Positions 1,135 to 20,451 are shown, counted from the first letter of the stretch. The stretch: DNA of 20,451 bases from Abditibacteriaceae bacterium (GCA_031372065.1 JANMKN010000363.1:1-20451); one strand, 5' to 3'. Notes: generated by a model not told the origin, from the letters alone. Made by a program: numbers and translations.

Positions 1135-1371
1135 TTAGTAGGGTGCGTGGTTTTCTTTTTGTGCGCCCGTTTCGTTGCCGCCAGCGCAACCGCCGCTTTC
1201 ATGCCGGTCTTATTTCGTAGGCTTTCGCCAAAAGCAATGAGACAGCCCTACGTGAACTATCCGTCTCATTTCTGAAGACACCAACAGATTTGGTGCTAAT
1301 TAGGCCTTGCGGATTGCAAATGCCATTGCACATCGAACTTTCGAGTGCGCTGCGTTCTCCAATCTGCGACC

Positions 1372-4300
1372 ATGAAAAACCGCTTTTTCGTTTTTGTCGC
1401 TCTTATTCTTCTTACTGCCGCCAGCTACGCCAATACTTTGCGCGGCCTTGTGCTTTTGCCGGATGGCAAACCGGCAGTGGGTGCCGAAGTTGTGCTGATA
1501 AATGGCACTGGTGATGAAGACCAGCCGTTGGTGACTGCTATAGCGCAGGCAGATGGCACCTTTGCCATTAAAAGCACAGACCTTTCATTTGATACGCCGG
1601 AAGACAGTCACGATTTTGTAGCGCATTTATCTGGTTATGGCTTGACGTGGCGCAAAACGGTGCAACCCGGTATTTTCACGCTGCGCTTGGCCCCGTCCGG
1701 CCCGCGCGTTTTGCGGGCACTTGATGAAGCCGGAAAACCAATTGCCAATTTTCAAGCCGCGCTTTATTTTTTGCATCGCCCTCATTTGCCGTGGGACGTT
1801 TGGGATGTGCTGGATTTGCCTGCATCGCTGGCAGAAAACTGGGCTTTGCACGCGTCAAATAACCAAGTGCGTTTAGTGACCACTCCGGCGCACCTCACTG
1901 CGCGTTGGCGTGTTACAGCACCCGGTTTCGCGCCGCAAAGTGTGATGGATACGGGCGCTGCAAAAATTAACGTCAGGCTGCAACGCGCGGCCACAGTGCG
2001 CGGCAAAATTACTGGTGATGGTCCGTTGCCGCCGAACTTGAAAATCAACGCCTCGGTTTCCATTAAAACCGACCCGACGGGCTGGTTAGATGCTTGGGGA
2101 AAGACTATTCCTGTGACGCCGGAGGGCACATTTGAAATTGCTATGCTGCCCGGCAAGGCGAATTTTCGTATTGTGCGCGATTGGTTGTCGCCAAGACAAT
2201 TCGAGGGCGAAACGAGCGTGGAAATTAAAAGTGGCGCCATCCAGGACATCGCCATTTCGTCGCACGCCATGAAAACGGGACCTATTCTGGCGCGCGTGAT
2301 GGATGATAGCGGCGCGCCAGTGCGCGGCGGGCGCTTTGTCGTTGGTGACCCTGCATTTTTGCGCCTGCCACCAACGGGTGACGATGGCATGACTCGGTTC
2401 TTCGCGGCACCCGGAAAAATGGAATTATTCGCTGACCCGCCGCCCGCTGGCTACCTGCGATCTGCCACTGACCCGCAAATGGATCGGCAAATTACGATTC
2501 CTGCTGGCGATGAGGCATTTCAGTTGCCCGATTTAGTGTTGCCCCGCGCCGCGCGAATGCAAGTGCGTGTTGTGTCGCCCACTGGCGAACCGTTGCCCGC
2601 TGTGTGGGTAGAATCCAGCGAGGATGCCGGACTGATTTACGGACACGATACGCTGCTCACCGATGACGTTGGCATCGCGCGTTTTACGCGACTTGACGGC
2701 AAAAAAGCGCAATTCGTGCGGGCGCACACGCCGCAAGGCTTCAGCGCAACATTAGCCGTGCCGCTGCCCTTGCCAAACAACGTGACTTTGACTTTTCGCC
2801 CTACTTTTACGCGCCTTGTGGTGCGCATTATGGACGATGCCGGGCAGCCTCTTTCCCACACAACAGTGACAGCGATGGCCCGCGACATCAGCGCCAAGCG
2901 CGACAACGAACCGAGTCAAGATATTCAATTAAAAACCGATGCGACAGGGCACCTTTTTAGCCCGCCTTTGCCGCCCCAAATGAGCTATCGTCTCAGCCTT
3001 GCACCGCCCGGCGTCGTTCCGTTATTGACGGCATGGCGTCCGGCACGCGGCGCGCAAATCGTGTTCGGCACTGTTGTTTTGCAACGACTGAATGGCGTTT
3101 TACGCGGCACCGTGCAAGACGCGCGCGGCAAGGCGCTTCAAGGCGTGCGCATATGGAGTCTCAGTGCCGAACATCTCAATGCCGCGCGCAAAACTATCAG
3201 TGATGTGCGCGGCGCGTTCAGACTCGACAAAATGCCAAAGCGCACTTTGTTGGTCTTTGCGCAAGACGCTAAAGGTGAAATTGACTACGCTTATGCGCCG
3301 CCGAACGCGAAGCTGAATTTACAATTGGGACACCGAAAGCGCGTCGCGCAAACAACCACATCTCAAGAGCGGCGCGCTTTAGCAAGGCGCTTGTTAAAGG
3401 CCACAATGCGCGAGGTGCAAAACGCCAAGCCCGGCGAGGCACGCATTAATAATCTGGCATATTTGGCGGCTCAATTGGCGCGCTGCGATGCCAATCGCGC
3501 CCGCCAACTGGTGGCGAGTTACCCCGAAGCGCGCGAGTATTTGCTGGCTGAACAATTTAGCCAAGCCCTCGAACGCGAGCCGCCGAACGTGACGCGCGCT
3601 ATGGCTTGTTGGAACGCACTCAAACCTGCCGAATGGCGAACTTATCGGCTCACTAATGAGACATGGAAATTGGCCGCGCACCATCCCGACGCGGCGCGGC
3701 TGCTTTTGCCCCTCGCTTTGCGAACGGCGCGTAGCACGAGCGATATTCCCGCGCGCCTTTCTCAACTCACGACCTTGCTGGGAACCTTGGCGAGGCTCCA
3801 CGATTCCGGCGTGCCACTTTTGCGCGCTGAAATCGAACATCTCGTCATACTTTTGCCGGACGACAGCGCGAAACTGAGTGCGCGCTTGAATTTAGCAGGC
3901 AATTTGGCGTTTTCTGATGTCGATGTCGCGCTGACGATGATCGAACCGCTCTCTAAGAGCGCAGAGCGCGCTCGTGTTATGCGCCAAATTGCTCGCCGCT
4001 TGGCGCCGCGCGATGCAGAACGCGCGATTCGCTTGGTGCGCGAAGCCGTTGTCGAAAACGATTCGCAATCCTATCTCGAAGCAAGCGATGAAGCAATGGC
4101 GCTACTTTGCCCAGCCATCGCCAAAACCAACTTGCCGCGCGCCATCGCGCTGACCAATTCGCTGCCACCGGGTTATCCTCGTGCGCTGGCGCACTTTCTG
4201 TTGGCACAACAGCAAGCCTCAAAAAGCAAAAAGCAAGCGCGCATCCAATTGGAGGCGGCAATTTTAGAAGCATCAAATTCCAAAGGCGTCGCCGCGTTGG

Positions 4301-4809
4301 AAACTGATGCTGGTTGGCGCGCTCCTGAAGAAAATTACGTTGTCCGCTCACAAGATCAGGAAAATCTCGACAGCCTGCGCCTGCTGTTAGCAAGGGCAGC
4401 GCGACGCTGGAATTTGCCAGGCGCTTCTGAACTGACTTTGCGGGCTTTGGCGAGCAACGCCGTCGGCACATTTTCGGCGGGCGGCGGTGACTATGTCATC
4501 CAACAGGATGCCGCTGCTACGATGGCCGCCGCGCAGATTCTGCCCGCTTATGCGCGCGACTGGGTTAAGGTTTATTGGCCGCGCGTGAAAGCGCGCGATA
4601 AAAATATAGGTTTGTGGACGTTGACCAATATGATGGTGGCCGCTGCGTTTAGCGACACGAAATTGTGTGAGAAAATCTGGCGCGAAATGCCCGCCGGCCA
4701 ACGTGCTTATTGCACTGGGGAATTCTACGAAATGATGCAGGCAGGCGATGCGAGTTTCGAGCGCGCAGTGCGAACCCATCTGCATCTGAATTACGATGCG
4801 AATATGTAA
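1372..4809 (+). CDS. Large secreted protein: repeated carboxypeptidase-regulatory-like beta-sandwich domains plus an alpha-helical C-terminal half
   Basis: ATG 1372 gives a signal peptide (MKNRFFVFVALILLTAASYA). About six repeats of the type VxDxxGxP (e.g. LRGLVLLPDGKPAVGAEV, LARVMDDSGAPVRGG, VVRIMDDAGQPLSHTTV, LRGTVQDARGKALQGVRI). C-terminus is Ala/Leu/Arg-rich and looks helical. Confidence 0.75.
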   Translation: MKNRFFVFVALILLTAASYANTLRGLVLLPDGKPAVGAEVVLINGTGDEDQPLVTAIAQADGTFAIKSTDLSFDTPEDSHDFVAHLSGYGLTWRKTVQPGIFTLRLAPSGPRVLRALDEAGKPIANFQAALYFLHRPHLPWDVWDVLDLPASLAENWALHASNNQVRLVTTPAHLTARWRVTAPGFAPQSVMDTGAAKINVRLQRAATVRGKITGDGPLPPNLKINASVSIKTDPTGWLDAWGKTIPVTPEGTFEIAMLPGKANFRIVRDWLSPRQFEGETSVEIKSGAIQDIAISSHAMKTGPILARVMDDSGAPVRGGRFVVGDPAFLRLPPTGDDGMTRFFAAPGKMELFADPPPAGYLRSATDPQMDRQITIPAGDEAFQLPDLVLPRAARMQVRVVSPTGEPLPAVWVESSEDAGLIYGHDTLLTDDVGIARFTRLDGKKAQFVRAHTPQGFSATLAVPLPLPNNVTLTFRPTFTRLVVRIMDDAGQPLSHTTVTAMARDISAKRDNEPSQDIQLKTDATGHLFSPPLPPQMSYRLSLAPPGVVPLLTAWRPARGAQIVFGTVVLQRLNGVLRGTVQDARGKALQGVRIWSLSAEHLNAARKTISDVRGAFRLDKMPKRTLLVFAQDAKGEIDYAYAPPNAKLNLQLGHRKRVAQTTTSQERRALARRLLKATMREVQNAKPGEARINNLAYLAAQLARCDANRARQLVASYPEAREYLLAEQFSQALEREPPNVTRAMACWNALKPAEWRTYRLTNETWKLAAHHPDAARLLLPLALRTARSTSDIPARLSQLTTLLGTLARLHDSGVPLLRAEIEHLVILLPDDSAKLSARLNLAGNLAFSDVDVALTMIEPLSKSAERARVMRQIARRLAPRDAERAIRLVREAVVENDSQSYLEASDEAMALLCPAIAKTNLPRAIALTNSLPPGYPRALAHFLLAQQQASKSKKQARIQLEAAILEASNSKGVAALETDAGWRAPEENYVVRSQDQENLDSLRLLLARAARRWNLPGASELTLRALASNAVGTFSAGGGDYVIQQDAAATMAAAQILPAYARDWVKVYWPRVKARDKNIGLWTLTNMMVAAAFSDTKLCEKIWREMPAGQRAYCTGEFYEMMQAGDASFERAVRTHLHLNYDANM

Positions 4810-5876: not shown

Positions 5877-5922
5877 AATCCGCCAGATAGCGGATGGAGT
5901 TCTTCGCAAGACAGAACACACT
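5877..5922 (+). promoter_or_regulatory. Palindromic box 1 plus -10-like hexamer, upstream of pckG
   Basis: AATCCGCCAGATAGCGGATG (5877-5896), 20-nt gap, CACACT (5917-5922). Confidence 0.8.
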
Positions 5923-7797: not shown

Positions 7798-9378
7798 ATG
7801 CCCGAAAACCAAGCGGCTCGTGAGCAACTGGCGGCAATTTTAGAAGCTTCGGACGACGCCATTATCGGCATCACGCCGGAGGGCATCGTTTCCGGTTGGA
7901 GCCGCAGCGCCGGGGAAATCTTTGGCTACAGCGCGACTGAAATTATTGGGCAGCCTCTGTCGCTGTTGTCGCCGCGTGATTTGGTGCGAGAAGGCCGCGA
8001 AATCATGCGCCAAATCGCGGCTGGCGAAGCAGTTGGGCGCTTTGAAACCGTGCGCGTGGCCAAAGATGGCAGCCGGCTGGACGTGCGAATGTCGCTCACG
8101 CCACTGCGCGACGAATCCGGCGCGGTTTCCGGCGCTGTAGCTCTCGTGCGCGACATCTCGGCACGCCGCGAAGCCGAACGCGCTGTGCGAGAAATGGAAG
8201 CCGGCGCCCATAACCGGGCTGTCGTTTTAGAAACGGCCAATCGTGTCGCGTTGGATATTCTCACCAGCCGCACCGGCGCCGAAGCTCTGCGCCACATCGC
8301 CGACGCGGCGCGCGTTTTAGTCGGCGCTCGTTATGCGGCATTGGGCGTGGCGCGTGAGCATGGCGGCGGCTTGAAACAGTTCATCGCCGTAGGTCTCACG
8401 CCTGAGGAAGAAGCCGCCATCGGCTCGTTGCCGCGCGGGCATGGCATTTTAGGACTGCTGCTCGAACGCCGTGAGCCGTTGCGAATAGATAAAATCGGCG
8501 CCCATCCCGCTTCGGTCGGTTTTCCGGCCAATCATCCGCCGATGGATTCGTTTTTGGGCGTGCCGATTCGGCGCGGCGAAGTGATTTTAGGCAGTCTTTA
8601 TCTCACCAACAAGCAAGGCGGCGGCTCGTTCACCGAAGCCGACGAGGCTGCGGTTCAGGCTTTGGGCGCGCACGCGGCCATTGCCATCTACAACTCGCAA
8701 TTGCTGGCGCAGCAGCGTTCTCTGGTTTCCAGCCTCATCACCGCGCAGGAAGACGAGCATCGCGCCGTCGCTTACGATTTGCACGACGGCCTAACGCAAT
8801 ATGTGATGGCGTCACACGCGCATTTGGAAGCCTTCAAGCGCGCCCACGCGACCGGAAAAGCCGAAAAAGCCGCACGCGAATTAGAACAGGGCTTGCAGTT
8901 CTTGAAGGAAGCTGTGGTCGAATCGCGCCGACTGGTCAACGGTCTGCGCCTGCTGGCATTGGACGACTTGGGCTTAGCCGGCGCGCTGGAGCAACTGCTG
9001 CACGATGAAAAAAACCGCGCCGGCTGGGAAGACGCCGGCTTAATTCATAATCTTGGCGATGCGCGCTTCGACCGCACGCTGGAAACCGGCGTTTATCGCA
9101 TCGCGCAGGAAGCCCTGACCAACGCGCGCCGCCATGCCGAAACGCCGCGCGTAGAAATGAAACTGTTGCTGGGCGATGGGCAATTGCTGCTCGAAGCGCG
9201 CGATTGGGGTCAGGGCTTCAATACGAAAGAGCGCGTTGGCGCGCCCGGCCATGCTGGTTTGCAGGGCATCATCGAGCGCGTGCATTTATTAAGCGGAACG
9301 CTGGAACTGCATTCGATGCCCGGCATCGGCACCACGCTACGCGCCCGCTTTCCGGCGTCGCCCGGAGAAAGTGACTAA
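7798..9378 (+). CDS. Soluble PAS-GAF-HisKA_3 sensor histidine kinase with DosS/DevS-like heme GAF
   Basis: PAS domain (ILEASDDAIIG...AGEIFGYSATEIIGQP...KDGSR). GAF with HPASVGFPANHPPMDSFLGVPI and GSLYLT. H-box AYDLHDGLTQ, N-box RIAQEALTNARRHA, DWGQGF, GLQGIIERV. No transmembrane segment. Confidence 0.92.
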   Translation: MPENQAAREQLAAILEASDDAIIGITPEGIVSGWSRSAGEIFGYSATEIIGQPLSLLSPRDLVREGREIMRQIAAGEAVGRFETVRVAKDGSRLDVRMSLTPLRDESGAVSGAVALVRDISARREAERAVREMEAGAHNRAVVLETANRVALDILTSRTGAEALRHIADAARVLVGARYAALGVAREHGGGLKQFIAVGLTPEEEAAIGSLPRGHGILGLLLERREPLRIDKIGAHPASVGFPANHPPMDSFLGVPIRRGEVILGSLYLTNKQGGGSFTEADEAAVQALGAHAAIAIYNSQLLAQQRSLVSSLITAQEDEHRAVAYDLHDGLTQYVMASHAHLEAFKRAHATGKAEKAARELEQGLQFLKEAVVESRRLVNGLRLLALDDLGLAGALEQLLHDEKNRAGWEDAGLIHNLGDARFDRTLETGVYRIAQEALTNARRHAETPRVEMKLLLGDGQLLLEARDWGQGFNTKERVGAPGHAGLQGIIERVHLLSGTLELHSMPGIGTTLRARFPASPGESD

Positions 9379-9380
9379 AA

Positions 9381-10052
9381 ATGAGCGAAACCAAGCTGTC
9401 TGAAATCACCGTGCTGCTGGTTGACGATCACGCCATCTGGCGCGGCGGCGTGAAAAGTATGTTAGACGACACCGAGTTCCGCGTCGTCGGCGAAGCCTCG
9501 TCCGGGCCGGAAGGTGTCGAAAAAGTGCGCGAATTGCAGCCGCGTCTGGTGTTATTGGACATCCGCATGGCCGGCGGCGATGGCTTGGATGCTTTGGGTG
9601 CCATTCGCGCCGAAAATGCCGCGACTTCAGTCGTCATGCTGACAACTTACGACAACCCAACTTATATGGCTCGCGCGGTTGCAGGCGGCGCGTCGGGTTA
9701 CGTTCTCAAAGGTGTCGGGCGCGACGAATTGTTAGACGCGCTCCGCAAAGTTGCGGGTGGCGAAATGCTGCTCGCAGCCAAAGATTTAACGCGCATTTTG
9801 CGCGGCGTCAGCGAAAGCGCGGCGCTCGCCAAAGATTTGATTCAGCCTTTGTCCGAGCGCGAAATCGAAGTGTTACGTCTTCTTTCAACCGGTCTGTCGA
9901 ATAAGGAGATCGCGCCCTTGCTTTTCATTTCGGAAAGCACCATCAAAACCCATGTCGAGCACATCATTCGCAAACTCGGTGTCGCCGACCGCGTGCAGGC
10001 GGCCGTTTGGGCCGCGCGGCATGGGCTGATAGCCACAGAATCCGCCATTTAG
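9381..10052 (+). CDS. NarL/DosR-family response regulator (REC + LuxR-type HTH)
   Basis: Receiver motifs VLLVDDH, LLDIRM, VMLTTY, GYVLK. HTH LSEREIEVLRLLSTGLSNKEIAPLLFISESTIKTHVEHIIRKLG. Starts 2 nt after the kinase stop. Confidence 0.95.
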   Translation: MSETKLSEITVLLVDDHAIWRGGVKSMLDDTEFRVVGEASSGPEGVEKVRELQPRLVLLDIRMAGGDGLDALGAIRAENAATSVVMLTTYDNPTYMARAVAGGASGYVLKGVGRDELLDALRKVAGGEMLLAAKDLTRILRGVSESAALAKDLIQPLSEREIEVLRLLSTGLSNKEIAPLLFISESTIKTHVEHIIRKLGVADRVQAAVWAARHGLIATESAI

Positions 10053-10084
10053 CGGATGCTCCCGGCCTCGCGCTTATTCATACT
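10039..10084 (+). promoter_or_regulatory. Palindromic box 2 plus -10-like hexamer, upstream of the cupin-cupin-4Fe4S-Rieske unit
   Basis: AATCCGCCATTTAGCGGATG (10039-10058), 20-nt gap, CATACT (10079-10084). Confidence 0.8.
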
Positions 10085-10115: not shown

Positions 10116-10517
10116 ATGAATTCAAACCCAACACGTCTGCGCGAACATCCTAACGCCCGCTTCGCTGCGGCAGAACACGTTCTTAACCTTGCAGAAAGTG
10201 TCGCGCAGTTACGCGCGGAAGAACATTCCGCACAGTGCGGCCATCGGCAAATTACGCTTTACCACCACGCGCCGCTCACGATGGTTTTGTTTGCCTTCGA
10301 GCCTGAGGGCGAACTGCGCGATCACGCCACAGCCGGTCTTGTGACGATTCAGGCGCTCGACGGCGCCCTGACGGTGCAAACCCCCGAACAAACCTACCAA
10401 CTCACGGCGGGCATGATTGTCGTTCTCGCGCCTAAAGTGCGCCATAGCGTGCGTGCCGCGCAGGCGAGTTCGATGCTCTTGACGGTGCATCTTCAAGTGG
10501 AGTCGCCGGACAAATGA
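10116..10517 (+). CDS. Cupin-domain protein
   Basis: GGAGGAG RBS before ATG 10116. Cupin motifs VLFAFEPEGELRDHATAGLVTIQALDG and LTAGMIVVLAPKVRHSVRA. Confidence 0.85.
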   Translation: MNSNPTRLREHPNARFAAAEHVLNLAESVAQLRAEEHSAQCGHRQITLYHHAPLTMVLFAFEPEGELRDHATAGLVTIQALDGALTVQTPEQTYQLTAGMIVVLAPKVRHSVRAAQASSMLLTVHLQVESPDK

Positions 10518-10876
10518 GTAGCGCAGCGGATATTCTCATTGACCTGCCGGCCTTAAGCGACGCGGCAGCGGGTAACGGGCCTGTGTGGGGCTGCGCGCTG
10601 GATGACCTCAATCTCACGCTGCTGGCGTGGGAATCAGGCGGACAGGTGGCGCCGCACGTTAACAGCGAGTTGGATGTGGTTTTCTTTGGCGTCACGGGCG
10701 AAGGCGAAGTGACTATCAACGACCAAATTTTCACACTTTCTCCCGGAAAACTGCTGCTTATCGCCAAAGGCAGCGAACGCGCTGTTCGCGGCTTGAGCGA
10801 CAAATTTTCTTATCTCAGCGTGCATCGCCGCCGCGCCGGCTTGATGCCGACGTCGGTCAAACGTGCGGCCCGGTAA
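10514..10876 (+). CDS. Cupin-domain protein
   Basis: ATGA overlap with the previous gene. VAPHVNSELDVVFFGVTGEGEVTI...LSPGKLLLIAKGSERAV. Confidence 0.82.
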   Translation: MSSAADILIDLPALSDAAAGNGPVWGCALDDLNLTLLAWESGGQVAPHVNSELDVVFFGVTGEGEVTINDQIFTLSPGKLLLIAKGSERAVRGLSDKFSYLSVHRRRAGLMPTSVKRAAR

Positions 10877-10885
10877 AGGTGGCTT

Positions 10886-11482
10886 ATGCCTGAAAACGTC
10901 TTCATCATTGACCCATCGCGCTGCATTGGCTGTCAGGCGTGCGTGCAAGGCTGCGCCGAATGCGACACCCATCGCGGCACTTCGATGATTCATCTGGAGT
11001 TCGTGGATCGCGCACAATCGGTGCAGACCACGCCGCAGGTTTGTATGCACTGCGAGAACCCGACTTGCGCGCAGGTTTGCCCCGCCGATGCCATTAAGCA
11101 AACGCCGGATGGCGTGGTGCAAAGCTCGCTTAAACCGCGCTGTATCGGCTGCTCGAATTGCGTTTTAGCGTGTCCGTTCGGCGTGCCCAAATACTTCGTC
11201 GAAATTGACCAGATGCAAAAGTGCGATATGTGCTACGACCGCACCAGCGTCGGCAAGCGTCCGATGTGCGCGACGGTTTGCCCGTCCGAGGCGCTGTATT
11301 ACGGCCCGCGCGAGGAATGGGAAAAACGGCGGCGCGGCAAGCCGGTCAACGAATGGCGCTTTGGAAAACAGCTTGTCAAAACCGGCGTTTATATGGTCAT
11401 GCCGGACGATACCGAACGCTTCGAGCAACGCGTGGACGTGCTTCTTTCGAGCATTAAACCCGCGCAAAAGGAGAAGCCATGA
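10886..11482 (+). CDS. Four-cluster [4Fe-4S] electron-transfer subunit (DmsB/FdnH/NrfC-like)
   Basis: Four Cys groups: [44 protein letters not shown]...PMCATVCP. Confidence 0.95.
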
Positions 11483-11997
11483 ACGATGCCGATGCTCCCA
11501 AATGGCGCAAAGATTTCCCTATTGAGCGCAGCGTGGACGATTATGTCACGCGCCGTGAGTTCACCAAGTTCCTGATCATGATTTCCGGCGCGACGGCGCT
11601 CGGTAACGGCTATTTTGCTTTGGCGAAGCTGCAAAGCGAGCGCGTCGCCCTGCACCCGCCGCAGGCCATCGCAGGCGCTGATGAATTGCAACATGACGCC
11701 GTAAAATTGTTTCGCTATCCGACGGAAAACGACCCGGCGCTGCTCATTCGATTGCCCAACGGCGAACACGTCGCTTATCTGCAACGCTGCACGCATCTGA
11801 CGTGCCCGGTGATGTATTCGCAAGCGCGCGGACGCATCGAATGTCCGTGTCACAACGGCGCCTTCGACGCCGCAACGGGCAGTGTTCTCGAAGGCCCGCC
11901 GCCGCGCCCTTTGCCGCGCATCGCTTTGCGCGTCGAGAACGGGCAAGTCTTCGCCATCGGAGTGGAAAACGGTGAAGAACCACACGCCCAATCATAA
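11479..11997 (+). CDS. Rieske [2Fe-2S] protein with twin-arginine-like motif and N-terminal hydrophobic helix
   Basis: CTHLTC and CPCHNGAFD boxes, GPPPRPL. N-terminal VTRREF followed by a hydrophobic stretch. ATGA overlap with the 4Fe-4S gene. Confidence 0.93.
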
Positions 11998-12041
11998 TCC
12001 GCCGTTTAGCGGATGCCCGGCGCGCACGAATTTTCCAAAAT
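11996..12041 (+). promoter_or_regulatory. Palindromic box 3 plus -10-like hexamer, upstream of the small membrane protein-narK-narI-like-Mo enzyme unit
   Basis: AATCCGCCGTTTAGCGGATG (11996-12015), 20-nt gap, CAAAAT (12036-12041). Confidence 0.8.
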
Positions 12042-12070
12042 GCTTCTCGTTAATCCATAAGTTGAACGCT

Positions 12071-12328
12071 ATGAAAGACCAGAATCCGCGACTTGCTCGT
12101 TTAGAGCAAAAACTTCAGGGCGTGCAAGCCTTACTCATCGTGGTGCTGCTGGTGCTGCTCATCCAGTTGTGGCTCATCACCATCGCGCTCGAAGAGTATT
12201 TGGCGGCGCGCCATCAACTGGCGGTGCCGACGTTTCTCGCGTCGCTGGCGTGCTTTGGCTTCAACCTGTGGCTACTCAAGTATTTGCGCGATTTGGATCG
12301 CGCCGGAAAGGATCGTGATGCCTCGTGA
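12071..12328 (+). CDS. Small two-helix membrane protein (resembles DUF6755 family)
   Basis: ATG 12071, 85 aa, two hydrophobic helices (LLIVVLLVLLIQLWLITIALEEYL; AVPTFLASLACFGFNLWLL). GTGA overlap with narK. The family name is from recollection only. Confidence 0.75.
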   Translation: MKDQNPRLARLEQKLQGVQALLIVVLLVLLIQLWLITIALEEYLAARHQLAVPTFLASLACFGFNLWLLKYLRDLDRAGKDRDAS

Positions 12329-13521
12329 CTGACATTTCTGCAAAATCTGGTTCAAGCAAAGCACTGGCGCTTTCGACGATTTCGTTTGCCGTCGCGTTTG
12401 CCGTTTGGGGCATGATTTCGCCGCTCGCCAAAACGTTTCAAACCACGTTTCATCTGAGCGAGCAGCAAGCGTGGCTTTTAATCGCCGTGCCGGTTTTGCT
12501 CGGCTCGATCATGCGCCTGCCGATGGGAATGTTGGCGGATCGCTTCGGAGGACGCATCGTTTTCGGTGCGCTGCTGATTTTTATCGCGCTGCCGGCCTTC
12601 ATGCTCAGTGTTTCTCACTCGTTTGAAGCGTTCTTGTTTTGGGGCTTGTTACTGGGCATGGCGGGCAGTTCGTTCGCCGTCGGCGTGACGTTTACCTCGA
12701 AGTGGTTTTCGCCCGAAAAGCAAGGTATGGCGCTCGGCGTTTTCGGCGCCGGCAACATCGGGCAAAGTTTGGCGCTGTTTTTCGTGCCGGTTTTATCGGG
12801 ACGATTCGGCTGGCAAATCACTTATCAAATCTTCGCCGCCGTCGCGTTGCTCTGGGGCATCGTTTTCCTGATGTTCGCCCGCAACGCGCCGGTTGTTACG
12901 CAGCCGCGCAGTTTCAGTGCGATGCTCAAAGTGCTGTGGGAAAAGCCGCTTTCGTGGCTGCTGGCGCTGTTTTACTTCGTGACCTTCGGCGGTTTCGTGG
13001 CGCTGAGCATTGGCCTGCCGAAACTGCTGCAAGAAATATTCGGCCTCACCAAAGAAGACGCCGGATTGCGCGTGGCGGGCTTTGTGTTGCTGGCAACGAT
13101 CATGCGACCTTTAGGCGGCGCTCTCAGCGATAAAATCGGCGGCGCGCGTTTGCTCATGGGCGTGTTCGCGGGCGCCGGAATTTTAGCGCTTGGCATGACT
13201 TTCGACCAAATGCTGCCTTTCACGCTGGGCGCGCTTGGCGTGGCGTCGTGTATCGGTTTGGGTAATGGCGCGGTGTTTAAACTGGTGCCGCAATTCTTTC
13301 CGCAAGACACCGGCACCGTGACGGGATTAGTCGGCGCGATGGGCGGGTTGGGCGGCTTTTTCCCGCCGCTGATTTTAGGCATCATCAAAACGCGCACCGG
13401 CGCTTACGATTTAGGTTTTGTTCTGCTCGCCGGCTTCTGTTTTGTGTGCCTGATTTTGAATTACGTCGTGTTCCTGAAGCGTCCCAGCGGTAAATCAAGC
13501 GTCGCAGCGGCGACTTCTTAA
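12325..13521 (+). CDS. narK: MFS nitrate/nitrite porter (NarK/NasA family)
   Basis: About 12 hydrophobic segments. Two intramembrane Arg (IMRLPMG, IMRPLGG). Nitrate-signature regions WFSPEKQGMALGVFGAGNIG and GTVTGLVGAMGGLGGFF. GNGAVFKLVP. Confidence 0.93.
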   Translation: MTDISAKSGSSKALALSTISFAVAFAVWGMISPLAKTFQTTFHLSEQQAWLLIAVPVLLGSIMRLPMGMLADRFGGRIVFGALLIFIALPAFMLSVSHSFEAFLFWGLLLGMAGSSFAVGVTFTSKWFSPEKQGMALGVFGAGNIGQSLALFFVPVLSGRFGWQITYQIFAAVALLWGIVFLMFARNAPVVTQPRSFSAMLKVLWEKPLSWLLALFYFVTFGGFVALSIGLPKLLQEIFGLTKEDAGLRVAGFVLLATIMRPLGGALSDKIGGARLLMGVFAGAGILALGMTFDQMLPFTLGALGVASCIGLGNGAVFKLVPQFFPQDTGTVTGLVGAMGGLGGFFPPLILGIIKTRTGAYDLGFVLLAGFCFVCLILNYVVFLKRPSGKSSVAAATS

Positions 13522-13527
13522 ACGACC

Positions 13528-14571
13528 ATGAGCCATCAACTCGACCGTAAAGCGGCGCTGACGGGAATTGCCGCCGCATTGCTGCTTATCGCGGCGATTT
13601 ATGTCGGCTCGCGCGGTTTTGCACACATTGACCCGGCGCTGATTGCTTACACCAGCGCCAGTGTTTTTGCGGCGTTCGGCATTGTTTATCGTTATGCGAT
13701 TTGGCTGCAAAAGCCGCCGACCAATATGTATTGGCATCGTGGCTGGCAATTGTTTTTTCGGCCCAAAGATTTGCCGAAAAACGTGCTGTGGCTCCTTCGC
13801 TTGTTCCTTAACACCTTCGTTTTTCAAACTTTCATCGAAAAACGCAGCCACGTCCGCTGGATGGCCCATTTTCTGATTTCATGGGGCTGCATCGTGGCGT
13901 GTCTGGTGACGTTTCCTCTGGTGTGGGGCTGGGTTCATTTCGACGCCGATCCCACAAATCCCATTGCTTATCAGGCGCACGTTTTCGGCTTTCACGCCGG
14001 AACGTTTCCCGCCGCCTCGCTGGTCGGGTGGATCACGTTTCACATTCTCGATTTTTGCGCCGTCGCGATTATTCTCGGTATTGCCTTCGCCTTCAAGCGC
14101 CGTATGTATGAGCCGGGCGCCCTGACCGTGCAAACCTTCGCGATGGACTTTTTGCCGCTGATTCTGCTGATTTCGGTTTGCATCACCGGCCTGATGCTAA
14201 CCATCAGCGCGATTTGGATGCACGGCCATTCATACAGCTTTTTAGCGATTTTGCACGCTTTTAGCGTCATCGTGACGATGCTTTATATTCCGTTCGGCAA
14301 GTTTTTTCATATCTTTCAGCGCCCGGCGAATTTAGGTGTGGCGTTTTATAAACGCGAAGGCGCAGAAGGCGAGCGCGCTTTGTGCAAACGCTGCGGAAGC
14401 GACTTCGCCTCGCAAATGCACATTGACGATTTGAAAACCGTGCTTGACCAGTTGGGCCTCGATCAACACCTCGAAGACGGAGCGCATTATCAGGAAATCT
14501 GCCCGCAGTGCCGTCGCCGCCTGCTGGCCTTGAACCAACTCGAAGCCATCGGCGGGCCGGGGTTTTTGTGA
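13528..14571 (+). CDS. NarI-like polytopic membrane protein (putative cytochrome b anchor) with C-terminal CxxC...CxxC domain
   Basis: Multiple TM segments with His in RWMAHFL, ILHAF and YIPFGKFFHIFQRP (NarI-like PFxKxxH). DFLPLILL...TGL segment. C-terminal CKRC and CPQC. Confidence 0.75.
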   Translation: MSHQLDRKAALTGIAAALLLIAAIYVGSRGFAHIDPALIAYTSASVFAAFGIVYRYAIWLQKPPTNMYWHRGWQLFFRPKDLPKNVLWLLRLFLNTFVFQTFIEKRSHVRWMAHFLISWGCIVACLVTFPLVWGWVHFDADPTNPIAYQAHVFGFHAGTFPAASLVGWITFHILDFCAVAIILGIAFAFKRRMYEPGALTVQTFAMDFLPLILLISVCITGLMLTISAIWMHGHSYSFLAILHAFSVIVTMLYIPFGKFFHIFQRPANLGVAFYKREGAEGERALCKRCGSDFASQMHIDDLKTVLDQLGLDQHLEDGAHYQEICPQCRRRLLALNQLEAIGGPGFL

Positions 14572-14597
14572 GAGATTTGAGAGATTGAGGATTATCC

Positions 14598-16832
14598 ATG
14601 TCGAATCCACCGCTGCCAATTGAGCAGCTTATCGAAGAGTTTGGGCCGCACCCGCAATACACGCCGCCGGGCGGCTGGAAGGGCGATAATCGGCCCGATA
14701 AAATCGTCGCCACGCATTGCTGCTTTTGCGGACAGCAGTGCGGCATCAATTTGAAAGTCAAGGACAACAAAGTCATCGGCTTCGAGCCGCGCGAAGAGTT
14801 TCCCTTCAATAAGGGCAAGCTGTGTCCGAAGGGCATCAAGCGTTATATGCAGAACGAGCATCCCGACCGGCTGCTGCATCCGCTCAAACGCACCGACAAT
14901 GGCTTTGCGCGCATCAGTTGGGAAGAAGCCCTCGATGCCACCGTTAAAGGCATTCGCTCGGTGCAGCAGAAATACGGCAAGGATTCGTTTGCGGTTTTGT
15001 CCGGCTCGTCGCTGACCAACGAAAAGTGCTATCTGATGGGCAAGTTTGCGCGCGTGGGCATCGGCACAGCGAACATTGATTACAACGGTCGTTTGTGCAT
15101 GGCCAGCGCGGCGGGAGCCAATAAAAAATGCTTCGGCATTGACCGCGCGGCCAACTCGTGGGAGGACATTCCGCTCGCCGACGTGATTCTCGTCACCGGC
15201 TCGAATGTCGCCGAATGCGCGCCGATTACAACGGATTATATCTGGCGGGCGCGCGACCGGGGCGCGAAATTGATCATGATTGACCCGCGCGTTACGCCGC
15301 TTGCGCGCACCGCCGATTTGCATATTCCGGTGCGTCCGGGCGGCGATTCGGCCTTGATGAACGGCATTTTGCACGTCGTCATCGAGCGCGGCTGGATTGA
15401 TCGTGATTTCATCGCGCAGCACACAGCCAATTGGGACGACGTGGCCGCGATGGTCAAGAAATACACGCCCGAAGTGGCTGGTGAACTGAGCGGCGTTGAC
15501 CCGCAACTCATCATCAAAGCCGCCGAAATGTGGGGGCCGGCCAAAACGAGCTTTCTTTTACACGCGCGCGGCATTGAGCATCACACCAAAGGCGTCGAAA
15601 ACGTGATGACGTGCATCAATTTGGTTTTAGCGACGGGCCGCATCGGGCGCCCCGGCTGCGGCTACGCGACGATTACCGGGCAGGGCAACGGGCAGGGCGG
15701 GCGCGAACACGGCCAGAAATGCGACCAACTGCCCGGCTTCCGCGACATCGAAGACCCCAAAGCGCGTGAGCATATTTGCAAAATCTGGGAGATTGTTGAT
15801 GCTGAGCTGCCGCACAAAGGCCAGAGCGCCGAAGACCTCGTGCAAATGATGCACGCCGGAGAAATCAAAGGCTTGTTTTCGATTTGCTTTAATCCCGTCG
15901 TCTCGCTGCCGGACGCCAATTTCACCAAAGCAGCGGTCGGAAAACTGGAAGATTATTCGATTATTGAATTTTTCATGAGCGAAACCGCGCAGCACGCCGA
16001 CATCATTGTGCCGGGCAGCCTGCACGAGGAAGACGAGGGCACTGTTACCAGCGCCGAAGGCCGCGTGATTAAAATTAATCGCGCCGTTGAGCCGCCCGGT
16101 GAAGCGCGCCGCGATTGGGAAATTATTTGCGATTTGGGCCGTCGTTTGGGCCGCGAAAAGCACTTCGCGTTCACCAAAGTCGAAGACATTTTTAATGAAT
16201 TGCGCGTTGCCAGCAAAGGCGGCACAGCGGATTACTTCGGCATCACTTACGAGAAAATTGACCGACAGCAAGGCGTTTTCTGGCCTTGTCCCGAACTCGA
16301 TCATCCCGGCACGCCGCGCTTGTTTGAAGACAATAAATTTTACACGCCCGACAAAAAGGCGCATTTTCAAGCCGTGGAATTTCGCCCGCCCGCCGAAGTG
16401 CCGGATGAGGAATATCCGGTTATTCTCACGACGGGGCGTGTCATTAGCCAATATCTGAGCGGCACGCAAACGCGGCGCATTGGCGGTTTGCTCGATCAAT
16501 ATCCTGAGCCTTTGTGCGAGATGCACCCGAAACTCGCGCAAAAACTCGGCGTGCAAAACGGCGAATTGGTGAAAGTCGAAAGCCGGCGCGGGCAAGTGAC
16601 GCTCAAAGCGCAAGTTGTGACTACGATTCGAGAAGACACGGTTTTCATTCCGTATCATTGGGCGAACGAACAGTCGGCCAACCTGCTGACGATTCGCGCG
16701 CTCGACCCGATGTCACGCATTCCCGAATATAAAGTCTGCGCGGTGCGCGTGAGCAAAGCGCAAGCGGGTGCGGCGCCAATGAAGCAATCGCTGGTGCCCG
16801 ATTCCTTGGAAGACGCACAACAAAAATCATGA
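14598..16832 (+). CDS. Mo-bisPGD oxidoreductase, Nas/Nap-type nitrate reductase catalytic subunit (no export signal)
   Basis: N-terminal [4Fe-4S] motif [10 protein letters not shown]...GKLCPKG. Active site NGRLCMASA (Cys167 followed by Met, as in NapA/NasA; FDH has His there). [12 protein letters not shown]-terminal LTTGR...[24 protein letters not shown]. Confidence 0.88.
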
Positions 16833-16837
16833 AGCAC

Positions 16838-16883
16838 AACCCGTCATTTGGCCGATGAGACAGGCGCAGCGTGGTGGCAGACT
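16838..16883 (+). promoter_or_regulatory. Degenerate palindromic box 4 plus extended -10-like element, upstream of ric
   Basis: AACCCGTCATTTGGCCGATG (16838-16857; 3 differences from consensus), 20-nt gap, TGG-CAGACT (hexamer 16878-16883). Confidence 0.68.
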
Positions 16884-16907: not shown

Positions 16908-17714
16908 ATGAATATTTTTGCATTGAAAAAGAGTCATGCCGCCGGACAACTTATCGTGCTTGGCGGGCAGGGCACTATGAGTTGCGGCGAAACCGTCGCG
17001 CAGATGGTGGCCGAGCGTCCGGCGCGGGCGCGCGTTTTTGAAAAATGGGGCATTGCTTATTGCTGCGGCCAGCGCACGGTGGCGCAGGCGTGCCGCGAGC
17101 AGAATGTGGACACCGAAGCCGTTTTGTCGGATTTGCGCGTCTGCGATGAGAGGATGGGTAAGTTGTCGGGCGATAACGATATTGATTGGTCGCAGGCTTC
17201 GCTTTGCGAGCAGATTGAGGCCATGGTGCGCGGGCCTCATCAATACTTACGCGATGAACTGCCGCGTTTGTCTTATTTGGTTGAGCGCGTCGCTGACGAT
17301 CACGGCGCGGCGTTCTCCGAATTTTGGGAGATGCAGGGGCTTTTCGAAGATGTGAAACAAGAAATCGAGAGTCACATTTTGAGAGAAGAAACTGCCTTGT
17401 TTCCGCTTTTGAAATGGCTCGAAACCTCAGGCGCGGCGCCCGTAGAAACCGAAAATGACCGGAGTAATTCTATTAGCCTGATGCATTCGATTTATCATCA
17501 GCACTCGGAAAATACTATGCTGCGCGCCTCATTGAAAATACTGCGCGGTTGGATTAGCAATTTTCAGCCGCCGGTCGGCGTTTGCAACACCTATCGCGTG
17601 TTGGCGCATGATTTAGGCGAACTTGAAACCACCATCGCGCGCCATCTTAGCATTGAAGAAGACGTAATCTTTCCGCGTGCGCTGGCATTGGCTGCACCTG
17701 ACGAAACAGCGTAA
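16908..17714 (+). CDS. ric: RIC/YtfE/ScdA-like di-iron protein (ScdA_N + hemerythrin domain)
   Basis: GAGGGG RBS before ATG 16908. ARVFEKWGIAYCCGQRTV N-terminal domain. Ligand motifs HQYLRDELPRL, HILREETALFP, HQH, HLSIEEDVIFP. Confidence 0.85.
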   Translation: MNIFALKKSHAAGQLIVLGGQGTMSCGETVAQMVAERPARARVFEKWGIAYCCGQRTVAQACREQNVDTEAVLSDLRVCDERMGKLSGDNDIDWSQASLCEQIEAMVRGPHQYLRDELPRLSYLVERVADDHGAAFSEFWEMQGLFEDVKQEIESHILREETALFPLLKWLETSGAAPVETENDRSNSISLMHSIYHQHSENTMLRASLKILRGWISNFQPPVGVCNTYRVLAHDLGELETTIARHLSIEEDVIFPRALALAAPDETA

Positions 17715-17793: not shown

Positions 17794-17839
17794 AATCCGC
17801 CAAATGGCGGATGCCGTTTCGCGGCAAATGAGCCACAAT
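17794..17839 (+). promoter_or_regulatory. Palindromic box 5 (perfect 8-2-8 core) plus -10-like hexamer, upstream of the AspT/YidE transporter
   Basis: AATCCGCCAAATGGCGGATG (17794-17813; core ATCCGCCA-aa-TGGCGGAT), 20-nt gap, CACAAT (17834-17839). Confidence 0.8.
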
Positions 17840-19674: not shown

Positions 19675-20451
19675 ATGCGAAGCGAATATGAAAAAAAACT
19701 GACGACGGTGGAAGCCGCTTTGAAGCACATTCGGCGCGGCGGGCGCATATTTATCGGGTCGGGCTGCGCCGAACCCGGCGCCCTCACACGCGGCTTGATT
19801 CAACACGCGCATTTGTTCGCCGACAATCCACTTATTCACATTCTCACGCAAGGCGAAGCGGCTTATGTGCGGCCCGAATATGCCGAAAATTTTCGGCACA
19901 ACGCGTTTTTCATCGGCGCCAATGTGCGCGAAGCGGTGCAGGATGGGCGCGCCGATTACACGCCGATTTTTCTCTCGGAAATTCCCGCGCTGTTCGCGTC
20001 CGGCCCGATGCCGCTGGATGCGGCGCTGATTCAAGTCACGCCGCCCGACGCTCAAGGCTTTTGCTCGCTCGGCGTGAGCGTGGATGTGGTGAAAGCGGCG
20101 GCGCAAAGCGCACGTTTGGTAATCGCGCAGGTCAACCGCTTTATGCCGCGCACCTTCGGCGATTCGTTCGTGCATTTCAGCGAAATTGACTGCTTCATCG
20201 AAGCCGAAGAAAGCATCCGCGAAGTGCGTTTTAAGGCGCCCAATGCAGAAGCCGAGGCTATCTCCGGGAAAATCGGCGCCAACGTCGCGCGTTTGGTGCG
20301 CGACGGCGCCACGCTGCAAATGGGCATCGGCGCCATTCCCAACGCGGTTTTGGCGCATTTATGCGAGAAAAACGACCTCGGCGTTCACACCGAAATGTTC
20401 TCCGACGGCCTGATGGATTTGGTGGCGCGCGGCGTGGTCAACGGCAAGCGC
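19675..20451 (+). CDS. Acetyl-CoA hydrolase/CoA-transferase family protein (4-hydroxybutyrate CoA-transferase-like), 3' end outside the window
   Basis: Absent from the ORF track because it has no stop in the window. GGAG RBS, ATG 19675: MRSEYEKKLTTVEAALKHIRRGGRIFIGSGCAEP...GRADYTPIFLSEIP...QVTPPDAQGFCSLGVSVD...DGATLQMGIGAIPNAV...DLGVHTEMFSDG. Confidence 0.93.
   Translation, partial: MRSEYEKKLTTVEAALKHIRRGGRIFIGSGCAEPGALTRGLIQHAHLFADNPLIHILTQGEAAYVRPEYAENFRHNAFFIGANVREAVQDGRADYTPIFLSEIPALFASGPMPLDAALIQVTPPDAQGFCSLGVSVDVVKAAAQSARLVIAQVNRFMPRTFGDSFVHFSEIDCFIEAEESIREVRFKAPNAEAEAISGKIGANVARLVRDGATLQMGIGAIPNAVLAHLCEKNDLGVHTEMFSDGLMDLVARGVVNGKR

Follow-up and report, generated by a model that had tools for sequence, protein, structure and literature searches.

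Here we describe a run of six open reading frames (ORFs) on contig JANMKN010000363.1 of an Abditibacteriaceae bacterium (GCA_031372065.1), which together appear to encode a variant form of prokaryotic nitrate reductase. The entire 20,451-base contig (hereafter the window) was analysed, in the context of a host genome of 6.1 Mb that is 94% complete. The six genes form a conserved module, for which no biochemical study was found in the literature searched, which left out most subscription journals. They lie in a single run, all on the + strand, with intergenic gaps of -4 to 73 nt:

10886..11482, + strand: 4x[4Fe-4S] subunit of the FdnH/PsrB/HycB/DmsB class, 198 aa, by family scans
11479..11997, + strand: Rieske [2Fe-2S] protein with a twin-arginine anchor, 172 aa
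12071..12328, + strand: DUF6755, two-helix membrane protein, 85 aa
12325..13521, + strand: NarK-family nitrate/nitrite transporter of the major facilitator superfamily (MFS), TIGR00886
13528..14571, + strand: NarI/QmoC-superfamily membrane subunit, 347 aa, with no Pfam match on its own
14598..16832, + strand: molybdenum bis-pyranopterin guanine dinucleotide (Mo-bisPGD) catalytic subunit, NasC-like, 744 aa

The initial annotation of this DNA had listed a Cys-Met molybdoenzyme lacking a twin-arginine translocation (Tat) signal next to NarK, a NarI-like membrane protein, a DmsB-like subunit, a Rieske protein and an 85-aa membrane protein, and all six ORFs were indeed found. Family scans also agree with its statement that the window holds no nitrite reductase, NapBC or NarGHJ genes. 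The NarK-type transporter scores 237 bits against TIGR00886 (cut-off 311.7).

Five of the six genes keep together across many bacterial phyla. At least 4189 relatives of the membrane protein were counted among 8000 scored candidates, and the Mo gene adjoins it at all 23 genome loci found via this protein; the 21 genome loci of sufficient length all carry the ferredoxin, Rieske and DUF6755 genes too. A NarK-like gene is present at 22 of these 23 loci, and is fused to the membrane subunit in eight. Selecting by the Mo enzyme gave 80 metagenome loci, 24 of them with enough flank, where the membrane protein, ferredoxin and Rieske were found together in 23, DUF6755 in 20 and NarK in six. From 26 Mo-selected loci, 187 neighbours were picked and 102 scanned, and here other transporters stand in place of NarK: HPP genes, presumably encoding nitrite transporters, are found next to it at 11 loci, and SLAC1 at a single one. 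Among 301 genomes of the phylum, 40 gave a strong membrane-protein match, including all 38 that have a Mo enzyme above 880 bits, so that the co-occurrence expected by the initial annotation holds from either side. NarG is present in 13 of the 301, three of them among these 40, and none was found in the host genome. The nearest named relatives of the module belong to the Armatimonadota, and further carriers come from the Acidobacteriota, Bacteroidota, Deinococcota and Bacillota, a range extended by Deinococcus and Brevibacillus records and by Neobacillus/Mesobacillus proteins.

The best NCBIfam family of the Mo enzyme is NasC (NF047855), with 854 bits against a curated cut-off of 1100, a test that discriminates weakly, as the other Nas enzyme of the host also falls under the cut-off at 873 bits. 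Alignment with E. coli NapA and Nas enzymes places Cys167-Met168 at the Mo site, and shows one [4Fe-4S] motif (CxxCxxxC..C; C41/C44/C48/C76), followed by K78. Neither an RR motif nor a Tat signal was found in the first 60 aa. The subunit is 29% identical to E. coli NapA, and 48% identical to a second nitrate-reductase-type enzyme of the host (contig C263), with which it has DYNGRxCM and a further motif in common. It does not belong to the Asp-ligated NarG class (TIGR01580, 59.9 bits against a cut-off of 1084), and reaches 166 bits against a cut-off of 359 for the arsenite oxidase family TIGR02693. In a quick tree of 55 rows the module enzymes join the host's own Nas enzyme (SH-like approximate likelihood ratio test 99), with NapA, Bacteroidota Nas and FdhF outside. 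This tree has long branches and few reference enzymes, with B. subtilis NasC and cyanobacterial NarB missing, and does not establish monophyly of the membrane-partnered enzymes.

Nitrate as the substrate is well supported by motif and context. It is highly improbable that the enzyme mainly serves another substrate (formate, chlorate or another oxyanion), or works in the direction of a nitrite oxidase. The top PDB matches by score are cytoplasmic formate dehydrogenases (FDH), and the FDH family TIGR01591 gives 637 bits, near its cut-off of 666. However, where FdhF carries a His after the Mo ligand the module enzyme has Met, the FDH motif GQNNVQG is absent, and the transporter and NO-stress neighbours indicate nitrate or nitrite. 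Moreover, a low-potential Rieske protein is unsuited to nitrite oxidation. Formate oxidation, named earlier as an outcome that would overturn the nitrate reading, is judged unlikely, given Cys-Met instead of Cys/Sec-His and the NarK, HPP or SLAC1 types of the transporters beside it.

Database labels for the membrane subunit often read 'MFS transporter' or 'hypothetical', and a protein-atlas search with it returned its own family only. Against the PDB, its family profile matches NarI (E 3.4e-4) and HycF (E 0.004), and HHalign pairs it with E. coli NarI at a probability of 94% (E 1.2e-7). The label 'NarI-like' given to this anchor thus holds at superfamily level; on closer view, family members match QmoC in 51 of 53 cases and NarI in one, with TcuB, TmcC and DsrM also commoner than NarI. 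Six helices are predicted by hydropathy. The mean number of lysines plus arginines is 11.8 in loop 1-2, 3.8 in loop 3-4 and 4.1 in the C-terminal tail, and 1.7 and 0.7 in the other two long or outer loops, a charge bias by which loops 1-2 and 3-4 and the C-terminus are predicted to lie inside; the NarK fusions are consistent with the N-terminus lying inside as well. All 53 diverse sequences have His114, His243 and His261, and no fourth His is invariant, position 172 being His in 31, Asn in 21 and Gly in one. HHalign puts His243 and His261 on NarI His187 and His205, and His114 on NarI His66; despite this last pairing, we infer from its position after the basic cytoplasmic loop that His114 is the equivalent of NarI His56. 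With three invariant histidines and no fourth, a cytoplasm-side haem b at His114/His261 is likely, while a second haem is not established.

At its C-terminus, the membrane subunit carries a CxxC-x35-CPxC motif that is kept in about 47 of the 53 sequences and eroded in Bacteroidota, and this end of the protein aligns to the HycF C-terminus (HHalign E 3.5e-6). As described in PMC9474812, four cysteines of HycF bind a single metal, at a site that contacts HycB and faces FdhF. Because the Cys4 tail resembles this site, the ferredoxin and Mo subunit would, by analogy, dock on it inside the cell. Apparent membrane-to-Mo 'fusions' (P0202, P0235 and L106) were dropped as evidence for topology: the first two look frameshifted, and L106 has lost a stop codon relative to its sister L104.

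In the ferredoxin-like protein the 16 cluster cysteines fall into four groups and are kept without exception in the 19 sequences aligned. DUF6755 has two hydrophobic segments and invariant Q32/W34/L35/S58, and a protein-atlas search with it gave DUF6755 clusters only, plus one weak match. The Rieske protein is anchored, as previously noted, by what proves to be a twin-arginine (Tat-type) anchor, TRREFTK (RR codons at 11551-11556), a motif that the initial annotation overlooked. R25-R26 and both disulfide cysteines (CTHLTC/CPCH) are invariant in 21 of 21 aligned sequences. Among 81 distinct Rieske sequences at module loci the disulfide pair is kept in 80, and RR was recognised in 58 by pattern (four of these on an upstream WRR) and in 22 by eye as TRRDTL; the sole exception, L132, is an unrelated Rieske. 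The protein is the only Tat substrate within the module, TatC is present in the host genome, and the Rieske probably faces outward. Its best PDB matches are the Thermus bc Rieske and AioB (AioB E 8.5e-12). A Ser and a Tyr have been linked to high potential in Rieske proteins (PMC3758308); here Gly and Phe take their places, and therefore a low-potential, menaquinol-type cluster on the outer face is suggested.

Because this anchor is Tat-type, the absence of a Tat signal from the Mo subunit is not enough to assign the enzyme to the cytoplasm. The Mo subunit and ferredoxin could be exported folded together with the Rieske, as AioA is with AioB, so that nitrate is reduced in the periplasm, for which the AioB-like character of this sole Tat substrate and the presence of TatC can be cited. 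Such an outward-facing enzyme is nevertheless very unlikely: inner-membrane nitrate/nitrite transporters are linked or fused to the module, the predicted cytoplasmic side is where both the Cys4 docking-like domain and the complete His pair are located, and the usual partner of this Mo class is a ferredoxin and not a Rieske. Furthermore, one family shows a rearrangement of the Rieske and Mo genes at six fetched loci, with several kb between them in five.

No bc-type cytochrome b/b6 (PF00033) that could partner the Rieske protein was found in the host genome, nor in four others tested. The host does have alternative complex III (ACIII) and one haem-copper oxidase, and Apibacter-genus genomes likewise have both. 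A cytoplasm-facing nitrate reductase might then be fed from the outer face, via the Rieske, by cytochromes c of ACIII or of a bc complex, or quinol might be bifurcated between the Rieske and haem b, in either case coupling the enzyme to the high-potential chain. This would account for the invariance of the Tat motif and disulfide, and agrees with the want of an invariant fourth His for a distal haem and with the ACIII and oxidase of these genomes; moreover, Streptomyces Nar1 offers a precedent in that it relies on the bcc-aa3 supercomplex (PMC7931247). We consider it unlikely, however, as no cytochrome c gene recurs among the module neighbours scanned, no bc cytochrome b accompanies the Rieske in the genomes tested, and a Rieske without the potential-raising Ser and Tyr would likely take up electrons from cytochrome c uphill. 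Rather unlikely, too, is a Qo-like site, which would make the module a fourth architecture of prokaryotic nitrate reductase. Quinol would here be oxidised at the position of the NarI distal haem, between His243 and the exported Rieske, with one electron going through haem b to cytoplasmic nitrate and the other through the Rieske and cytochrome c to an oxidase or to NO/N2O reductases. If true, aerobes could co-respire nitrate and trace oxygen without a bc complex.

At L157 (10628-15769), cytochrome b/b6 and cytochrome c genes lie just downstream of the module, past a flavoprotein gene, and may provide a Rieske partner in that lineage. The host genome also encodes, on many contigs, more than 25 large proteins of 800-1200 aa that have signal-like N-termini and two CxxCH motifs, and which we take to resemble Planctomycete cytochrome-domain proteins.

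Expression of the module appears to be tied to a palindromic box, AATCCGCC-N4-NGCGGATG (6+6), of which the genome holds five exact copies, with about 0.6 expected per spacing genome-wide. Four of the five lie in the 20-kb contig, and the initial annotation was right in seeing the box shared with a DosS-like sensor. The boxes, and the genes around them not yet listed, are:

5878..5895, + strand: box upstream of pckG-sensor-regulator; -10-like CACACT 21 nt downstream
7798..9378, + strand: PAS-GAF histidine kinase with DosS/DevS-like GAF, HPPM histidine kept; predicted haem O2/redox sensor
9381..10052, + strand: NarL/DosR-family response regulator, putative box binder
10040..10057, + strand: box upstream of cupin-cupin-ferredoxin-Rieske; CATACT 21 nt downstream
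10116..10876, + strand: two small cupin-domain genes of the same run, accessory, missing from most homologous loci
11997..12014, + strand: box, candidate internal promoter, before DUF6755-narK-membrane-Mo; CAAAAT 21 nt downstream
16839..16856, + strand: degenerate copy of the box, with 3 mismatches, preceding the RIC gene; CAGACT 21 nt downstream, likewise ahead of ric in G003
16908..17714, + strand: RIC/YtfE-like di-iron Fe-S repair protein, a frequent module neighbour
17795..17812, + strand: box upstream of a YidE/AspT-family transporter and acetyl-CoA hydrolase/transferase; CACAAT 21 nt downstream
C165:4392, C294:3988 and C13:6827: boxes elsewhere in the host genome (G000)

The seven top-scoring sites in the genome all have a -10-like hexamer exactly 21 nt past the box, a pattern that was fitted post hoc and whose p-value we set aside. 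They precede pckG-sensor-regulator, cupins-ferredoxin-Rieske, DUF6755-narK-membrane-Mo, yidE, two universal stress protein (Usp) loci and a receiver gene. From the 21-nt spacing, the box centre is predicted near -42, which is the position of a class II activator. Generic sigma-70 and terminator scans stayed at chance level; a repetitive extragenic palindrome or terminator hairpin was ruled out by the fixed position of the hexamer in the seven sites and the recurrence of the box upstream of orthologous genes. Relative loci carrying the box are those of G003 and G199, and five from metagenomes. In G003, of the same genus (L173, C222:8000-27999), it heads a distant module copy with 53% membrane-protein identity and a different gene order, as well as ric, yidE and pckG, and independent recruitment of this copy into the regulon is suggested. 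The sensor GAF matches a mycobacterial sensor-kinase GAF (E 1.7e-38) and DevS (E 6e-37), its HPPM histidine presumably being a haem ligand, and in L089 and G003 the module has homologous sensor-regulator pairs beside it. The HPPM-type GAF, the NarL-family regulator and the Usp genes in the regulon are all features of a DosS/DosR-type system, while the box differs from the mycobacterial DosR box. This palindromic activator box is apparently undescribed, and would define a small DosS/DosR-like regulon of phosphoenolpyruvate carboxykinase (PEPCK), Usp, RIC, YidE and the module. Elsewhere, among 128 ORFs scanned at genome and plasmid loci, the neighbours include cytochrome bd, Crp/Fnr, NnrS, hemerythrin and molybdenum cofactor (Moco) genes, with qNor and nos at L023. 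From the box regulon, the DevS-like sensor and these neighbours (the Moco genes aside), we infer low-oxygen induction of the module.

So does the module serve nitrogen assimilation? On contig C263 the host has narK and the second NasC-like gene together with one for a 482-aa NirB-N-terminal flavoprotein, and contig C153 carries NirA (872 bits, cut-off 523). In the genus of G301, an Apibacter muscae record, eight of 11 genomes have both the module Mo enzyme and the membrane protein; in seven of these eight the module enzyme is the only PF00384 match, and four of the eight gave no match to a sirohaem reductase (PF01077). In G301 itself the single sirohaem reductase is CysI, and NirK is present. 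Because of the separate narK-nasC-flavoprotein locus and NirA, and because four Apibacter-genus carriers lack a sirohaem nitrite reductase, the module is likely not the assimilatory enzyme of the host. Together with the box regulon this supports the non-assimilatory, low-oxygen role first proposed for it there. Phenotypically, the A. adventoris type strain reduces nitrate (PMC7442301), the phenotyped strains not being matched to the scanned genomes.

An enzyme that is quinol-fed and still assimilatory is conceivable, in which the membrane module takes the place of the NADH diaphorase, and NirA or NirB receives the nitrite for growth on nitrate. Besides the NasC-like catalytic subunit and the NirA of the host, it can draw on the assimilatory reading that Heylen and Keltjens gave to a probably equivalent Bacillus bataviensis cluster (PMC3475470), and on one clade of metagenome loci:

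L110:1820-5779: NirBD fusion beside the module
L111:3425-6711: flavoprotein with NirA beside the module
L113:795-12406: ABC transporter with NirA beside the module

From this clade it follows that the module probably serves assimilation in some lineages, and for these three loci the assimilatory reading may be correct. As a general account it is quite unlikely, however. Apart from the separate locus of the host, all four other Bacteroidota carriers tested have a separate Nas-type frame of 1170-1180 aa and a NirB-sized frame, the four Apibacter-genus genomes have no sirohaem reductase, none was found among the 128 neighbours scanned, and the box regulon consists of Usp, PEPCK and RIC genes, not of nitrogen-starvation genes. 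The sub-clade in assimilation operons had been overlooked in the initial annotation.

The reading that we favour, and hold to be reasonably probable, is that of a quinol-fed, cytoplasm-facing, membrane-bound enzyme with a NasC-type catalyst, which reduces nitrate to nitrite and would be switched on by the neighbouring DosS/DosR-like system when oxygen is low. NarK would import nitrate and export nitrite, with electrons drawn from the quinol pool and not from NADH. Quinol would be oxidised at a site on the outer face, formed by the membrane subunit (His243, His/Asn172 and a conserved TFPL..GW..F stretch), the Tat-exported low-potential Rieske and DUF6755. From there, electrons would travel via the His114/His261 haem b into the four-cluster ferredoxin and on through the [4Fe-4S] cluster to Mo in the cytoplasm, with ferredoxin and catalytic subunit docked on the cytoplasmic Cys4 domain as HycB and FdhF are on HycF. 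Since protons would be released outside and consumed inside, this amounts to a NarGHI-like redox loop, and the role in the host genome could be electron disposal with modest energy conservation under hypoxia, nitrite being the end product.

We must however take into account several points that weigh against this interpretation. The activity, expression, complex, topology and haem count of the enzyme are all predictions from sequence. A Tat-bearing Rieske can take a signal-less Mo subunit outside, as in arsenite oxidase, where AioB has the Tat leader (PMC3758308). There is no equivalent of NarI His66, and no more than 31 of 53 sequences have a His at position 172, so that neither the second haem nor a classical NarI quinol site is established. 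The box occurs at only 7 of 17 relative loci, and at L099 (7001-9169) a 75%-identical Mo enzyme with the box upstream has no partner genes within the fetched flanks. The three loci of the clade above, out of 26 sampled metagenome loci, stand in sirohaem nitrite-reductase operons, and at one locus, L007, an ammonium transporter lies near the module. Furthermore, Apibacter strain wkB309 is nitrate-negative, and A. adventoris lacks anaerobic growth (PMC7442301). Lastly, the host genome gave no match to NirK, NrfA, Nor or cytochrome bd; with no NirK, NrfA or Nor for respiratory nitrite removal, its nitrite would be exported or assimilated by NirA.

The initial annotation held that the set fits neither Nar, Nap nor Nas, and the module indeed lacks defining features of each of these, as well as of Aio and FDH; it is predicted to work most like Nar. 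NasC of the Bacillus type (NF047855) is the best family match and shares the single [4Fe-4S] cluster, the missing Tat signal and a NarK neighbour, and the motif DYNGRxCM is common to the module enzyme and the host's own Nas enzyme. The module differs from NasC in scoring below the cut-off, in having no NADH flavoprotein or nitrite reductase in the window and at most loci, and in its four extra conserved partners and hypoxia-type box. Like NarGHI of E. coli (PDB 1Q16), it is predicted to combine a Mo subunit on the cytoplasmic face with a multi-cluster ferredoxin and a b-type anchor, next to NarK. Its catalyst, however, is of the Cys-ligated NasC class, its six-helix anchor has three of the four haem histidines and a Cys4 tail, a Rieske and DUF6755 are added, and no NarJ chaperone was found in the operon or among the scanned module neighbours. 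NapAB(C) has the Cys-Met active site in common with the module, whose Mo subunit lacks a Tat signal, and which has no NapB/C/D and no c-type haem motif. AioAB resembles it in pairing a signal-less Mo subunit with a Tat-bearing, disulfide-type Rieske, whereas in AioA the Mo is not bound by an amino acid (PMC10100899) and the cluster is of the [3Fe-4S] type (PMC3758308). The module instead has the Cys167 ligand, a four-Cys motif, and the four-cluster ferredoxin and cytochrome b-like anchor that AioAB is without. Finally, FdhF-HycB-HycF, the input arm of formate hydrogenlyase (PDB 7Z0S), also joins a Mo subunit to a 4x[4Fe-4S] subunit and a CxxC-x34/35-CPxC metal site on a partner. In the module this site forms one protein with a cytochrome b-like anchor, a hydrogenase is missing, and the active site belongs to the nitrate-reductase type.

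Two earlier reports seem to have met the module. Heylen and Keltjens described a 729-aa NasC of B. bataviensis linked to Fe-S and Rieske genes, which they classed as an alternative system of assimilation (PMC3475470); this cluster is probably equivalent. An Apibacter preprint reports a 'NAR' cluster in which a Rieske stands where narI is missing (10.1101/2020.09.30.321786), and also with narK, Moco and MOSC genes that match L015. Judging by gene content, and by the module enzyme being the single PF00384 match in seven of the eight carriers of the genus, it appears to be the module. In their accessible parts, neither the B. bataviensis paper nor the preprint recognises the membrane subunit or assays the enzyme, and the accessible part of PMC10100899, on NasC and Rieske, describes no such family.

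In gene surveys, narG and napA are the markers of respiratory nitrate reduction and NasC-like genes are counted as assimilatory, so the module would be taken for a standard enzyme of nitrogen assimilation. Should it be a nitrate reductase used at low oxygen, such surveys undercount dissimilatory nitrate reduction among soil aerobes and microaerophiles, and a catalyst of the Nas/Nap class can be connected to quinone from the cytoplasmic side. An outward Rieske on a three-histidine anchor is, moreover, an unexplained bioenergetic design.

Several gene arrangements may be recorded besides. In Adhaeribacter rhizoryzae (L023:1414-20101), the module lies between nos genes and qNor/RIC, like the nitrate step of a denitrification island. 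In family f12 of the phylum (L194-L198 and L201), its genes are out of order and mixed with others for Moco synthesis, molybdate transport, Crp/Fnr and NnrS-like proteins. Outer-membrane proteins of the alginate-export family occur inside or beside the module and an ordinary Nas locus (L089:5350-6663, L201:15421-16590 and L024:11810-13321), and are possibly a nitrate porin. Within the window, positions 1345-4809 encode a secreted-looking protein of 1154 aa with carboxypeptidase-regulatory-like domains. The acetyl-CoA hydrolase/transferase is truncated at the window end (19675-20451), with an apparent continuation and a GNAT domain at the start of contig C165 (123-1127, L025). The first bases of C165 look foreign to this frame, and the two contigs are probably adjacent in the genome.

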